A stretch of 20,000 nt of DNA. Source: Chiloscyllium plagiosum (Eukaryota). Under the pieces are notes generated by a model. That model saw nothing but the letters and a program-made list of their open reading frames with translations. It did no database searches and was not told the origin of the DNA. Numbering within the stretch: position 1 is the stretch's first letter; every line of letters begins with the position of its first letter. Made by a program: the position numbers and the translations under genes. The stretch covers positions 64,773,803-64,793,802 of the forward strand of contig NC_057718.1 of assembly GCF_004010195.1 (NCBI RefSeq), written 5' to 3'. Positions 4,917-16,095 of the stretch are shown in pieces.

Positions 4917-5315
4917 ATTGTCGAGTATAAGATTGTAAGACCCAGAATTTATAGCAAAAGTTTACAGTGTTATGTAACTGAAATTATATGTTGAAAAAGA
5001 CCTGGATTGTTTGTTAAGTCTCTCATCTTTTAGAATGGACATGTTGGTTTCCATTCTTTCATATGTAAATCACAAAACCTTTTTAAAAGTTACATTTTCA
5101 AGTGAACTTTAACAATTGGTGTCATGTCAGCCCAGATAATGCATTGAAGGTGTGAGGTGCCCTGTGAGAGACTATCTGTGCCCCAATGGTCAGACTGATT
5201 CTAATCTAAAAAAGGGATTTACAGAATCTTACATGGATTCATGCAGTTTTTGAGCAAAGTAAAATGTAATTCTGCGAGTACAAAATTCACCCCACAAACT
5301 TATACGTATACATGT

Positions 5316-5600
5316 ACATGTGTGTGTGTGTGTGTGAAGGGGGTGTGGCGGTTGTTATGACTGTCCGTGAGAGAGTGTGTGTATGTGTGTGAGTGTGAGT
5401 GTTAAGGGGTATAGGTCTGTGAGAGGGTGCATGTTTGAGTGTGGGAGTGTAAGTGTGAGCGTATGAGAGAGGGTCTGGCCTCAACAGGGACCTTGGGTTC
5501 ATGTCACACTACAGGTTACCCCATTGTACTATACACACACACAGACAAACGCACACACACAGACACTCCTACAGTCACACACACTCCTACAGACGTATAC
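5316..5600. repeat. Imperfect (GT)n / (CA)n microsatellite tracts inside the Penelope-like remnant
   Basis: Runs of TG at ~5319-5336 and 5375-5460; runs of CA at ~5533-5585. Confidence 0.85.
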
Positions 5601-5627
5601 ACTCATGCAGACCCACTCTCATACGCT

Positions 5628-5709
5628 TTGTCTTTGTAGGTTTTTTTTGACTGTTAACTGTTAGTGTGTCATTGTGTTTGTCAATTTGTATAATGTTGAA
5701 TAAAAAAGA
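5628..5709 (+). mobile_element. Truncated A-tailed insert C (3' UTR-like) at the LTR TATA-like site
   Basis: GT-rich sequence ending ...GTTGAATAAAAAAGA, directly followed by TATAAACACAGGA (5710-5722). Confidence 0.5.
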
Positions 5710-5722
5710 TATAAACACAGGA

Positions 5723-6117
5723 AACTCTGCTGTCGGAGGCAGGCACTGGTTTGGAAAGTTGATTCTGGGTCAGATGGCAAACTCTGGGAGTGGCCCCTAT
5801 GTTGGGGGTGGCCCCCGTTTTGTGAGTGGATTCTGTCTTGGAATGGACTCTGCCCTTTGCGGTTAGCACTTCACCCTTATGTGTATATTGTGTTGGCGCT
5901 GTGCCTTATCATGTAAACAAGGGATTAGGGCACGTTTGTTATTGGCCACTTGGGTATGTTTTTTTTCTTCCTGGTGGTCATATACAAATAAAGTTTTCTG
6001 CACTCAATATTTCTTCACTTTTCCTACACCTACAAGTACACAAGAATGCTGGGGAGAAATAAGCACCACTGCTGTTTGGCAGTAGTATGGGGAGGGGATA
6101 AAAAAAAGAAAAAAAAA
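5723..6117 (+). mobile_element. A-tailed non-coding insert B (retroposon 3' end, probably L1/Tx1-type or a non-autonomous derivative) inside the Gypsy LTR
   Basis: Ends in an A-rich tail (6100-6117). Flanked by imperfect direct repeats TATAAACACAGGA (5710-5722) and TATAAACAGGGGA (6118-6130). Confidence 0.7.
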
Positions 6118-6251
6118 TATAAACAGGGGATTTAGAATCTCCCCAGCTCAGGGGACTGACTCTGAGCTAGCTGGCTATAGCCAGTGTACTGTGCCAAAGT
6201 AAATAAAGCTTGACCTGGTGACAGGATACTGGCCTCTGTGCAGTTATTTTA
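6118..6251 (+). mobile_element. Gypsy-type LTR remnant (TATA, R, U5), probably the 3' LTR of the pol at 2688-4770
   Basis: TATAAA at 6118, AATAAA at 6202, terminus ...GGCCTCTGTGCAGTTATTTTA. Similar in inverted orientation to 6596-6647, which ends ATTATTTCA on the minus strand. The upstream U3 portion is not visible. Confidence 0.75.
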
Positions 6252-6864
6252 TTGGACGTCAAATATTTTCAACTCTTGTACACTGAGTTCTAATGTTACT
6301 TGTAGGATACTTTGATCTTAGGAATTGTTCCATCAGGGCCATGTATTTTAATCTTTGTAGGCTGTAACTTCAGTTTCTTCAGTCATGGTATCTGATCGGA
6401 CAGTGACAGTCATTCCTGTAGCAAGCTTAATGTTTACAATGTGTCCATTAATGTGGATCTCTGAAGGTCAGATCAATTAGATCACTACTGCTGTTCAAAA
6501 CAACAATTTCTGGTTGGAATCCCTTTGGCATTTTTACTAATGGATGTATATTGATTAATGCAGGTACCTCTTTTACTGATAGTTGGTGTTCTACTTGAAA
6601 TAATTCTACAGAGGCCAGTATTCTGTCACCAATCACCCTTTATTTACATAAGGAGAGCCCTTGACACTGAGCCAGCTGCCTCAGAGCCAGCTCTCAGGGT
6701 CAACAAGATGTTTAACACCCGGTTCTTTTTTTTTCTACTGGCTGTGGACCAGCCAGCTCAGAGTCAGTTTCCTTCTCTGACACAAAATGGAGAGTCCTGG
6801 ACACTGATCCAGCTCCCTCAGACCTAGCTCTCAGAATCAACAAGATGTTTAGCACCTAGTTCTT

Positions 6865-7095
6865 TTCTGTTTCTTTTTTAAAATTTTATTAAACAATACA
6901 CAGTTTACAAGGGAGTAGAGTAGCAAAGCCAGGCCCCAAACCCGACCGTTCAACCAGTTTTCAGGGAAATGAGGACAAACCTCAAATCCCAGTTTCGATC
7001 ATTACAAAACAGTAACAATGACAATTGTACATACAAGACAGTCCAATTACATAAAAGACAGTGCATACGTTACAGATCCCCTGAAACCCAGCAAG
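6865..7095 (-). mobile_element. A-tailed non-coding insert A' (short retroposon) in the solo LTR
   Basis: Minus strand starts CTTGCTGGGTTTC and ends TTTAATAAAATTTTAAAAAAGAAACAGAAAA. It is a diverged copy of insert A (8290-8480 and 7132-7160). Confidence 0.8.
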
Positions 7096-7110
7096 TAACA
7101 CCCAGTTCTT

Positions 7111-8480
7111 TTTTTCCCTGTTTATTTTTTGATTTTATTAAACAATTCATAGTTTACAAAACAATGAATACACGGAATACAGGGAGAACTAGCCATTTGG
7201 ATACAGAACTGGCTCAAAGGTAGAAGACAGAGGGTGGTGGTGGAGAGTTGTTTTTCAGACTGGAGGCCTGTGACCAGTGGAGTGCCACAAGGAGCGGTGC
7301 TGGGCCCTCTAACTTTTGTCATTTACATAAGTGATTTGGATGCGAGCATAAGAGATATAGTTAGTAAATCCGCGGATGACACTAAAATTGGAGGTATAGT
7401 GGACAGCGAAGAGGGTTACTTCAGATTACAACAGGACATTGACCAGATGGGCCAATGGGCTGAGAAGTGGCTTAATTCAGATAAATGTGAGGTGCTGCAT
7501 TTTGGGAAAGCAAATCTTAGCAGGACTTACACACTTAATGGTAAGGTCCTCGAGAGTGTTGCTGAACAAAGAGACCTTGGAGTGCAGGTTCATAGCTCCT
7601 TGAAAATGGAGTCACAGGTAGACAGGATAGTGAAGAAGGCATTTGGTATGCTTTCCTTTATTGGTCAGAGTATTGAGTACAGGAGTTGGGAGGTCATGTT
7701 GCAGCTTTTGGAATATTGCTTGCAATTCTGGTCTCCTTCCTATCAGAAAGATATTGTGAAACTTGAAAGGGTTCAGAAAAGATTTACAAGGATGTTGCCA
7801 GGGTTGGAGGATTTGAGCTATAGGGAGAGGCTGAACAGGCTAGGGCTGTTTTGCCTGGAGTGTCGGAGGCTGAGGGGTGACCTTATAGAGTTTTACAAAA
7901 TTATGAGGGGCATGGATAGGGTAAATAGGTAAGTCTTTTCCCTGGGGTGGGGGAGTCCAGAACTAAAGGGCATAGGTTTAGGGTGAGAGGGGAAAGATAT
8001 AAAAAAACCTACGGGGCAACTTTTTCACACAGAGAGTGGTACATGTATGGAATGAGCTGCCAGAGGAAGTGGTGGAGGCTGGTATAATCGCAACATTTAA
8101 GAGGCATTTGGAAGGGTATATGAATAGGAAGGGTTTGGAGGGATATGGGCCGGATGCTAGCAGGTGGAACTAAATTGGGTTGGGATACCTGGTCGGCATG
8201 GACTGGTTGGACCGAAGGGTCTGTTTCCATGCTGTACATCTCTATGACTTTGTAACTAACATTAACAGCTGGATACAAAGAAGCAGCAATTGTACAAGGG
8301 AGAGGAGCAGCAAAGCCAGGCCCGAAACCCTACTGTTCAACCAGTTTTCAGGGAAATAAGGAACCTCAAATCCCAGTTTCGATCATTACGAAACAGTAAC
8401 AATGACATTTGTACATACAAGACAGTCCAATTACATAAAAAAACAATGCATACAATACAGACCCCCAGAAACCCAGCAAG
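7111..8480 (-). mobile_element. A-tailed non-coding insert A, split by a later CR1 insertion (parts 8480-8252 and ~7172-7111)
   Basis: Same 5' start CTTGCTGGGTTTC as A'. The 3' end reads TTTAATAAAATCAAAAAATAAACAGGGAAAAAAA. It is longer than A' by an internal segment that contains the CR1. Confidence 0.8.
7172..8251 (+). mobile_element. CR1/HER1-type LINE, 5'-truncated (RT C-terminal half plus 3' UTR)
   Basis: ORF 7234-7932 contains VTSGVPQGAVLGP, SADDTK (FADD decayed), KCEVLHFG, DLGV, LEYCLQFWSP and LERVQKRFTRM. The 3' end is GGACCGAAGGGTCTGTTTCCATGCTGTACATCTCTATGACT. Confidence 0.95.
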
Positions 8481-9159
8481 TAACACCCAGTTCTTATCTG
8501 TCAACCGGTATTCCCTGACTGGGGCTGTTAATCTGGTCCAGTCAGGGAACTCACATTCTATGAGGTTCACCTAGCTGGCCATGTTACAATCACTACTCTA
8601 CTGTGTAGACTGCTTTACAAAGTATGACTACCAGTAATTCTGCTGTTCTGAAACTGTGGGCGTAATTTTCTCTGAAGTGGCAATAGTGAGAGAGTTGGGA
8701 AGATATGGTGAGAGAAAAAAAATTGGAATCTCAACATTGAAAAAAACCCCTCAATTTCTGCTTAAGTTTTAAATAGTGACTTCAGAATCTTGCCATTAAG
8801 CAGCAATGACTTTATTTCTGTGCATTTGCATCTCATGATTGACCCAAATCATCTGTTTCATAGACTGCTTCCAATTTCCTCTCCTTCCCTGAGAACCTAA
8901 ATGAAACAAATATCTGACATGAAATGCAGAGTACTGAAGGCTTGCCCCTTCAATCCCTTTTCCTCGATTGGTCTTCACTGCTGTTACATTCAATAAAGCC
9001 AATTAATGTTCACTCACGAGTGTAGATCTGATCTTACTCCATTCATTGCCTGGGACATTTTGCTAGGTTAAAAATACTATTTTTGGCAAGTTGTTTTTGT
9101 TATAAACTGAATACTCCTGTCTGTAACAACCATAGCTGATGCTTTATCATAAGCTACCA

Positions 9160-14427: not shown

Positions 14428-16095
14428 GCATATGTTAAGTATAGACAGCAGAGATCGAATGAATCCCTAAAAGAGTATCAAATCAGTAGAAGTATAGTTA
14501 CAATGGAAATCAGGAGGGCAAAAAGGGGATATGAGATAGTTTTGGCAAATAGCATTAAAGAGAATCCAAATGGATTCTACAAATACATTAAGGCCAAAAA
14601 AGTAACGAGGGAGAGAATATGGCCCTTATAGATCAGCAAGGCCACTTATGTGTGGAACTACAGGGGATGGGGGAGATACTACAATAATATTTTGCATCAG
14701 TGTTGACTATGGAGGAGGATATGGAAGCTATAGAACATGGGAAAATAGTGCATTTTTGAATAACAAAGAGGATTGATGAGGGCAGAGCAGTGGACGTGAT
14801 CTATATAACTTCAGTAAGGCGTTCGACAAGGTTCCCATGGTAGACTGGTTAGCAAGGTTAGATCAAATGGAATACAGGGAAATCTAAATATTTGGATACA
14901 GAACTGGCTTGAGATAGAAGATGTAGGGTAATGGTTTAATTTAGCAAAATGTGAGGTGCAAAATTTTGGAAAGGCAAATCAGGGCAGGACTTATATACTT
15001 AATCGTAAGCTCCTGGGATATGTTGCTGAACAAAGCAACCTTGGAGTACAGGTTCATAGTCCCTTGAAAGTGGTGTCACAAGTAGATAGGATACTGAAGA
15101 AGGTGTTTGGTATGGTTACCTTTATTGGTAAGTGCATTGAGTATAGGAGTTGGGAGGTCAGTTGGGCAGCACGGTGGCACAGTGGTTAGCACTGCTGCCT
15201 CACAGCGCCTCACGGTGGCACAGTGGTTAGCACTGCTGCCTCACAGCGCCTTAGACCCGGGTTCAATTCCCGCCTCAGGCGACTGACTGTGTGGAGTTTG
15301 CACATTCTCCCCGTGTCTGCGTGGGTTTCCTCCGGGTGTTCCGGTTTCCTCCCACAGTCCAAAAGATGTGCAGGGTCAGGTGAATTGGCCATGCTAAATT
15401 GCCCCTAGTGTTAGGTAGGGGTAAATGTAGGGGTATGGGTGGGTTTCGCTTGGGCGGGTCGGTGTGGACTTGTTGGGCCGAAGGGCCTGTTTCCACACTG
15501 TAATCTAATCTAATCTAATCATGTTGCAGCTGGACAGGACATTGATCAGGCCATGTTTGGAATATTACATTCAGTTTTTGTCTCCCCACTATAGGAAAGA
15601 TGTTGTTAAACTTGAAAGTGTTCAGAAAAGATTTACAAGGATGTTAGGGGACTTGAGCTATAGGGAGAAACTGAATAGACTGGGGCTATTTTCGCTGGAA
15701 TGTCAGAGGTTTAGGGGCAACCTTACAGAGGTTTATAAAATCATAAGGGGCATGGATAGGGGAAATAGATACTCCCAATCTGGGGTGGGGGAATCCAAAA
15801 CTAGAGAGTCGAAGTTTAAGGTGAGAGGGGAAAGATTTTAAAGAGATTTAAGGGGCAACATTTTTACAGCGACAGTGGTGAGCGCATGGAATGAGCTGTC
15901 TGAGGAAGTGGTGGAAGCTGGTACAGTTACAACATTTAAGAGGCACCTGGATGGATATATGAATAGGAAGAGTTTAGAGGGTTATGAGCTAAGTGCTGGC
16001 AAATGAGACTAGATTAATTTAGGATACCTGCCTGGCCTGGACGAGTTGGACCAAAAGATGTGTTTCCGTGTTGTACAGCTCGATGACTCTGACCC
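14428..16095 (+). mobile_element. CR1/HER1-type LINE ORF2 remnant with large internal deletions and a nested SINE
   Basis: EIRRAKRGYE...IKENPNGFYKYIK, FSKAFDKVP, NLGVQVHSPLK, LEYYIQFLSPHYRKDVVKLESVQKRFTRM. The 3' UTR matches 8050-8250. Confidence 0.92.
15164..15520 (+). mobile_element. Young HE1-type tRNA-derived V-SINE with duplicated 5' head
   Basis: A-box GGTGGCACAGTGG (twice), B-box GGGTTCAATTCC, V-domain TGTGTGGAGTTTGCACATTCTCCCCGTGTCTGCGTGGGTTTCCTCCGG, CR1-like tail plus (TAATC)4. TSD-like TCAGTTG / TCATGTTG. CpGs are largely retained. Confidence 0.95.

Follow-up and report, generated by a model that had tools for sequence, protein, structure and literature searches.

Stacked A-tailed insertions at the TATA-like site of a shark long terminal repeat point to a site-specific Tx1-clade LINE

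Why should several A-tailed segments stand one behind another at the same place inside two separate long terminal repeats (LTRs)? The question is raised by a stretch of 20,000 nucleotides (nt) of the Chiloscyllium plagiosum genome (NCBI RefSeq assembly GCF_004010195.1, contig NC_057718.1, positions 64,773,803 to 64,793,802 of the forward strand), hereafter the window, which contains a minus-strand solo LTR at 6596-8597 and the remnant of a plus-strand LTR that ends at 6251. It is highly probable that these LTR stacks were made by a site-specific long interspersed nuclear element (LINE) of the Tx1 clade, working through target-primed reverse transcription and also moving other poly(A) RNAs. Loci elsewhere in the assembly are cited by L numbers and contigs by C numbers.

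The solo LTR had been described in the original prediction as bearing a CTACT target site duplication (TSD) and as being opened to hold three A-tailed segments between copies of one site, and this description was confirmed when the sequence was read again. Its features are given below in LTR sense, the site being the TATA-like sequence between U3 and R.

8598..8602, no strand: TSD CTACT of the solo LTR (5 bp), upstream copy in LTR sense.
8496..8597, minus strand: U3 of the solo LTR, with CCAAT-like boxes inside it and a GACAGAT end that abuts the TATA-like site; 82-88% identity to the U3 of other copies.
8481..8495, minus strand: site copy 0, AAGAACTGGGTGTTA, a variant of the usual ATAAACAGGAGTGTC.
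8265..8480, minus strand: upstream copy of the family 'A' retroposon, 5' part, 5'-truncated, first bases CTTGCTGGG.
About 7170..8264 (boundaries approximate), plus strand: unrelated CR1/L2-like LINE 3' fragment, a later insertion into this 'A' copy, with a reverse transcriptase (RT)-type open frame at 7168-7932 (254 amino acids).
7111..7169, minus strand: 3' end of the 'A' copy split by this fragment; AATAAA and an A-rich tail are present.
7096..7110, minus strand: site copy 1, AAGAACTGGGTGTTA.
6865..7095, minus strand: second family 'A' copy, with the same 5' end as the first and an A-rich tail.
6850..6864, minus strand: site copy 2, AAGAACTAGGTGCTA.
6735..6849, minus strand: third segment, followed by an A9 tail at 6726-6734.
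About 6713..6727, minus strand: site copy 3, (AA)GAACCGGGTGTTA.
6596..6712, minus strand: R-U5 of the solo LTR, which contains AATAAA and terminates in ...TTATTTCA.
6591..6595, no strand: TSD CTACT, downstream copy of the solo LTR.

Each of the three segments between U3 and R-U5 ends in an A-run that is followed by a site copy of 13-15 nt. All four site copies of this LTR (4/4) share private variants, AAGAAC instead of the usual ATAAAC and TGGGTGTTA instead of AGGAGTGTC, the sequence after U3 in another copy (L045) being ATAAACAGGAGTGTC; this marks them as duplicates of the local target, which the inserts did not bring along. The first segment is A-tailed and lies between site copies, as had been claimed, but it is not continuous, being split by the CR1/L2-like insert (~7170-8264), and it is a truncated member of a longer family. 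Since that CR1/L2-like fragment, of which a look-alike in L040 matches RVT_1, lies inside a stacked 'A' copy, the stack is older than the CR1/L2-like insertion. The second 'A' copy (6865-7095) has lost 40 nt internally between TTGTAAA repeats, while the third segment starts with ~60 nt that repeat its own LTR's R at 84% identity (repeat family D3), after which come 54 nt similar to the R of a second LTR subfamily.

Are such segments simply a part of the LTR? A U3-only search turned up 1922 first-look candidates; 40 were scored, and 30 LTR copies were read in 29 non-window loci. Among these best-scoring U3 matches, 26 of the 30 copies are empty at the site and run straight from it into R and on to ...TTATTTCA, for a whole LTR length of ~235 bp (one of them, L042, has an unrelated insertion elsewhere in R, and L048 diverges after ~50 nt of R), so that the inserts do not belong to the LTR. 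The original prediction had named the opposite outcome, in which no empty-site LTR copies exist, as one that would refute it. The remaining four copies (L033, L040, L053 and L056) are occupied by an insert exactly after the site, an occupancy of 13%.

The target is a short retrovirus-type LTR, in which most copies start with TGTAGTG and end with TTATTTCA, a TATA-like box and AATAAA are present, and the window copy has its 5-bp TSD; the 'Gypsy' label that it had been given is no more than putative. In at least 15 loci a conserved internal region lies downstream of the LTR. Four internal open frames of the LTR element had no Pfam match, and their weak lead (0.76) is to a capsid-type cluster, 53% of whose members have Caulimovir_coat_dom; no pol sequence was seen among these frames.

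The autonomous element, a very abundant LINE, was found through the insert type 'B', which in L075 and L033 is the end of a coding frame. A search with the C-terminus of this second open reading frame (ORF2) gave 5841 first-look candidates, 150 of them scored, at 87-93% identity, and young copies of the 3' untranslated region (3'UTR) are 95-98% alike. In L092 the order is LTR U3, TATAAACACACTC, LINE 5' end, ORF2, C-terminus, 3'UTR with A-tail, TAAACACACTC and a second LINE, which starts at the same nucleotide as the full-length first one, so that two LINEs stand head to tail at one site. The 265-amino-acid C-terminus, the part of ORF2 that was read, is 47% identical over 191 amino acids to residues 1054-1242 of Xenopus Tx1 ORF2 (E 6e-40), and its match to a Polypterus L1-type ORF2 is not significant (E 0.072); its zf-RVT match of 23-25.6 bits lies under the Pfam cut-off of 27.5.

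The other domains of the protein can be approached through its relatives. A 65%-identical public protein of 622 amino acids carries the RT motif YADD and is 41% identical to Tx1 ORF2 over 99% of its length, and Xenopus Tx1 ORF2 contains PF03372 and PF00078. A genome search with Tx1 ORF2 (49,740 first-look candidates, 36 scored) gave matches of ~50% identity over residues 3-1191, and among the matches listed, five places of the LINE family lie within Tx1 ORF2 matches that cover residues 46-511 and 559-712 and extend as far as 1304, into the endonuclease and RT parts. Because of the kinship of its C-terminus and of these matches, the element is named a Tx1-clade LINE. The earlier guess at a Tx1-group enzyme is thus well founded for the ORF2 C-terminus, whereas for endonuclease and RT it has coordinate overlap behind it.

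The same stacked architecture recurs in unrelated loci (e.g. L014, L091, L092, C83530, C11 and C15), and this recurrence excludes chance. Wherever the duplications were compared (the window, L091, L092, C83530, C11 and C15), they carry the private site variants of the LTR in which they lie; the 3' junction does not vary, and most duplications measure 11-15 nt, with longer ones of ~22-75 nt also occurring together with very short inserts. One LTR in L014 holds four stacked inserts, namely a ferritin retrocopy and three unlike, differently truncated 'A' copies, with a site copy after each. Two LINE 3' ends stand in tandem in L056, and stacks elsewhere mix Tx1 with 'A' or 'C', the latter being the family met in the plus-strand remnant. 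The proposal that each insertion regenerates its target and so builds repeat-insert arrays agrees with these private-variant duplications and with the stacks in L014 and L092.

Family 'A' yielded 4714 first-look candidates, and in 25 of 28 non-window loci the homology extends upstream through a G-run into a longer element. The window copies begin directly after the G-run of that longer element, a place where reverse transcription may have stalled repeatedly. In L091 a 5' LTR contains an 'A' copy of ~650 nt, flanked by AACAAAGAGGACTGT and CCAAAGAGGACTGTC, that LTR copy's own version of the site; no open reading frame was found upstream of this long copy, which is a ~650-bp element in the 5' LTR. 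A scan of window positions 5000-9000 with Rfam at the gathering threshold gave no match, the window 'A' and 'C' copies being 5'-truncated and the full 5' end of 'A' in L091 lying outside the scan. Families 'A' and 'C' are filed here as non-autonomous poly(A) retroposons rather than as short interspersed nuclear elements (SINEs), which have a small-RNA-derived head with an internal RNA polymerase III promoter. Separately, the 5' part of 'A' forms a satellite-like array on contig C32 (~3.2949-3.2958 Mb) and on C83687, with a 380-nt period and 96-98% identity.

Could the stacks be native LTR structure, or have grown by local tandem duplication through unequal crossing-over or slippage rather than by repeated insertion? 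Recombination between flanking site copies would double a unit, the two window 'A' copies share their start base, and arrays with a regular spacing of 380-400 bp do exist. We consider this very improbable as a general account, given that 26 of 30 sampled LTRs are site-empty and that stacks hold different passengers with different truncation points, as seen in L014. Moreover, the window 'A' copies are ~90-97% alike over repeat blocks, no closer than to outside copies (86-92%). Tandem duplication may nevertheless explain some regular arrays, possibly also the two window 'A' copies.

How exclusive is the site for the inserts themselves? The DNA after each tail was scored by two criteria, the site 11-mer shortly behind the tail, up to two mismatches being allowed, and a BLAST match to R-U5 from other loci; a strict 8-mer, ANCAGGRG, had been tried as site motif and was dropped because it undercounted old sites. 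Site motif and/or R-U5 follow the tail in 31 of 40 Tx1 3' ends and in 24 of 34 'A' copies, all from best-scoring loci. The motif was present in 173/5000 and 215/5000 random control windows of the same loci (3.5-4.3%), and the R-U5 BLAST criterion gave 21/400 in its control. The antisense motif was found in one of 40 Tx1 3' ends and two of 34 'A' copies, which bears out the sense orientation that had been claimed, and the counts run contrary to the outcome that the original prediction had named as fatal to it, with copies lying mostly at unrelated A/T-rich sites. When the misses were inspected by eye, the nine Tx1 cases comprised four degenerate sites with the next insert of a stack behind them, one that is not a true 3' end and four off-site, and the ten 'A' cases comprised two cut by other elements, three stack cases, one internal and four off-site or unclear.

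The site begins with ATAAA, which is close to the L1 nick consensus, and two of six ferritin retrocopies (described below) lie at ordinary A-rich sites, so that a generic L1-type preference for A/T-rich, bendable DNA, with the TATA box as a hot spot and no sequence-specific enzyme, might be invoked. Such an origin is highly unlikely in view of the 13% occupancy of a single position in sampled LTRs, the 71-78% of two retroposon families that end at one motif as against ~4% in controls, the strict sense orientation, and the kinship with Tx1, whose group is noted for insertion at specific targets. In that group, target specificity has been recognized where more than 20% of flanks are of one kind (PMC4494074), and here 31 of 40 3' ends are followed by the site motif and/or R-U5.

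Cellular messenger RNAs (mRNAs) are found at the site as well. A ferritin search gave 242 first-look candidates, many places being contiguous across exon joints, while the parent genes are intron-bearing, with a separate match for each exon, and form a tandem cluster on a single contig (C39, ~4.62-4.72 Mb, with at least eight intron-bearing ferritin genes). The retrocopy in L014 comprises 5'UTR, coding region, 3'UTR and A-tail, matches PF00210 (E 6.5e-27) and has one frameshift. The copies on C83530, C11 and C15 lie at the site, with site duplications of 13-15 nt and adjoining U3 or other stacked inserts, and those on C30 and C10 lie at ordinary A-rich sites, one of them with an 11-nt TSD of unrelated sequence. 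Of the six intronless retrocopies examined (five fetched flanks and L014), four are at the LTR site, and the ferritin copies show the hallmarks of processed pseudogenes, namely absence of introns, an A-tail and TSDs.

One locus is represented both with and without an insert. L053, on a short contig, and L057, on a chromosome-scale contig, are 100% identical over 692 and 549 nt, what sets them apart being 86 nt inserted at the site, consisting of 41 nt of Tx1 3'UTR and a ~45-nt duplication that ends at the usual downstream junction; the difference is either a heterozygous insertion or an assembly variant.

Retrocopies embedded in LTR elements have been documented in animals (Tan et al. 2016, PMC5131818), and this opens a further path, LTR-mediated retroposition, in which the RT of the LTR element switches template to poly(A) RNAs packaged in the same particle and the inserts integrate together with the LTR. 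The LTR-sense orientation of the inserts and the U3/'A' junction common to several loci would fit such template switching. We find it hardly credible for these stacks. LTR-mediated retrocopies are reported to have no poly(A) and no TSD, to be 3'-truncated and to be flanked by discontinuous LTR elements (PMC5131818), whereas the inserts here are A-tailed and 5'-truncated and the LTR is continuous except for a private-variant duplication of 11-15 bp. Full-length tandem Tx1 LINEs occupy the same site, one locus exists with and without its insert (L053/L057), and, as weak evidence, the L091 junction was found in no second match nearby.

The steps by which a site-specific Tx1-clade LINE would generate these structures can be outlined. 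The LINE would nick the ~235-bp retrovirus-type LTR at or just after the TATA-like ATAAAC, a specific cut that its own endonuclease would presumably make; reverse transcription would be primed on the poly(A) tail, and the 5' end would be joined some 11-15 bp downstream. Each insertion would then be flanked by site copies and leave an intact site on both sides, one of which the next insertion could use, so that stacks would grow head to tail in the sense of the LTR. Acting in trans, the same machinery would insert other poly(A) RNAs, such as 'A', 'C' and cellular mRNAs like that of ferritin. In the window, this would have left a stack of three segments in the solo LTR and of at least two in the remnant, modified later by the CR1/L2-like insertion and by a deletion.

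Several points weigh against attributing the stacks to repeated insertion by this LINE. Each sample comprises the 36-150 candidates with the best scores out of thousands, and the fractions may not hold genome-wide. Off-site copies make up about 4 of the 40 Tx1 ends, about 4 of the 34 'A' copies and two of the six ferritin retrocopies. A check on ten young Tx1 copies was spoiled, as the offset used was ~90 nt too far for their short-3'UTR variant; the set was not counted, and its flanks comprise four that could not be judged, four with site, stack or LTR, one ambiguous and one tail followed by non-site DNA. At least eight loci have one common U3/'A' junction at 82-91% identity and may have been hitch-hiking on amplification of the LTR rather than being hit independently, and the two window 'A' copies, with their common 5' end, may be one insertion doubled by unequal crossing-over. 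The probable link of endonuclease and RT to the LINE family rests on coordinates and a related public protein, and the name Tx1 clade rests on sequence matches.

Does the LINE also live off its target? Since the first base of a passenger falls 11-15 bp after the TATA-like box, the LINE may use the LTR promoter. On this tentative and rather doubtful idea, it would have no promoter of its own and would depend on the U3/TATA of the LTR, which would serve both as landing pad and as transcription unit. That the LTR promoter drives the inserts and that an occupied LTR is disabled, both put forward in the original prediction, is likewise inferred. One single-cell poly(A) run gave 38 reads, which cover the U3 end and the site alone and continue into the R of an empty LTR, none of them falling on the 5' end of the LINE, while another run yielded 0 reads; these data have no bearing either way on LTR-driven LINE transcripts. 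Were the idea true, mRNA copies of the ferritin type would be born with a promoter, in a site-specific retrogene nursery that decapitates a retrovirus-like element.

Parts of this behaviour have precedents. Target-specific Tx1 LINEs, partners that share their target and tandem insertions that sandwich TSDs are already described (PMC4494074). The crocodilian families Tx1-8_Crp and Tx1-4_AMi prefer LTR retrotransposons (Kojima 2015, PMC4494074), and the likeness lies in this targeting of LTR retrotransposons by Tx1 families. The shark LINE differs from them in its single spot of 11-15 bp by a TATA-like box, its stacks, its thousands of copies and its mRNA passengers, the comparison being with a one-sentence description that gives no position (PMC4494074). 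Also in crocodilians, Tx1-Mar and SINEU-3 are a LINE and a non-autonomous partner with one target, whose tandem insertions sandwich the TSD, with the target lying next to 90% of the SINEU-3 copies; their target is a Mariner DNA transposon and the head of the partner derives from a small nuclear RNA (PMC4494074), whereas the target here is an LTR and the Rfam scan of window positions 5000-9000 gave the partners 'A' and 'C' no known RNA head. Xenopus Tx1, the closest named protein relative (47% in the ORF2 C-terminus), is itself site-specific in another transposon, Tx1L lying in Tx1D, but its target is a non-autonomous piggyBac element rather than an LTR (PMC4494074). The original suggestion that the system was undescribed is accordingly narrowed by the crocodilian families (PMC4494074); for cartilaginous fishes, no paper on such LTR-site stacking by Tx1 was found in literature listings and in passages of PMC3747384.

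The ferritin copies share with the processed pseudogenes made by mammalian L1, as characterized in PMC5131818, the A-tail, 5' truncation, TSDs and use of mRNA in trans. The L1 retrocopies are dispersed, whereas four of the six ferritin copies examined here lie in one LTR site. By analogy, R2 and R1 in ribosomal DNA are also site-specific LINEs in a multicopy target, possibly reliant on the transcription of that target, as might be the case here. The R2 endonuclease is of a different type, and the target of R2 and R1 is a host gene.

The system would be a clean, high-copy vertebrate case in which the core promoter of another element is the only landing site, and it offers natural replicates by the thousand, from LTRs with an empty site, a single hit or a stack to one presence/absence pair. 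It would also mean that a target-specific LINE can be the source of processed pseudogenes that form from host mRNAs at the site of the LINE itself, which bears on the makers of retrocopies outside mammals and on whether LTR-flanked retrocopies always reflect LTR-mediated retroposition. In annotation, these LTRs would otherwise be split or mis-modelled as long composite repeats.

What, then, is left of the second LTR of the window? The plus-strand remnant has no U3 left and reads as follows.

5628..5709, plus strand: 3' end and A-tail of the poly(A) family 'C', its 5' part lost beside a TG/CA-rich fold-back; 83-91% identity to L062, L063, L072, L074 and L084.
5710..5722, plus strand: site copy TATAAACACAGGA of the LTR remnant.
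5723..5926, plus strand: internal part of family 'C', joined to the next part.
5927..6117, plus strand: end of a Tx1-clade LINE 3'UTR, about its last 190 nt, with an A-rich tail at 6100-6117.
6118..6130, plus strand: site copy ATATAAACAGGGGA.
6131..6251, plus strand: R-U5 of the second LTR subfamily (GATTTAGAATCTCC type); 80% identity to the L076 copy.

Both A-tailed segments are followed by TATAAACA(C/G)(A/G)GGA (repeat family D9). Positions 5723-6117 had been taken for one A-tailed segment; the A-tail and the site copy after it are there, but the segment is a chimera of an internal part of 'C' and the Tx1 3'UTR end, the latter (5927-6117) being 69% identical to a young copy in L092 and 76-84% to older copies. 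A deletion within a former stack would be the simplest origin of this chimera. The expected U3 position is occupied by the fold-back at 5300-5627, whose TG-rich and CA-rich arms pair imperfectly (for example, 5458-5477 against 5608-5627, 95% complementary) and which may be another inserted element.

Sequences like the R of the second subfamily also occur on their own. Short A-tailed pieces with such a start, stopping near ...CAGCCAGTGT, were seen in L062, L065, L081, L009 and at 6735-6788 of the window, and family 'C' seems to start with R-like sequence too (L056 and L062). The short pieces might have arisen as very long duplications or have been copied from short RNAs that start in the LTR. 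Elsewhere in the window, at 15170-15251, there is a perfect 41-nt tandem duplication within a tRNA-like SINE head (CACGGTGGCACAGTGGTTAGCACTGCTGCC...), and this SINE head also occurs after several retrocopy tails elsewhere (L065 and the C30 flank).

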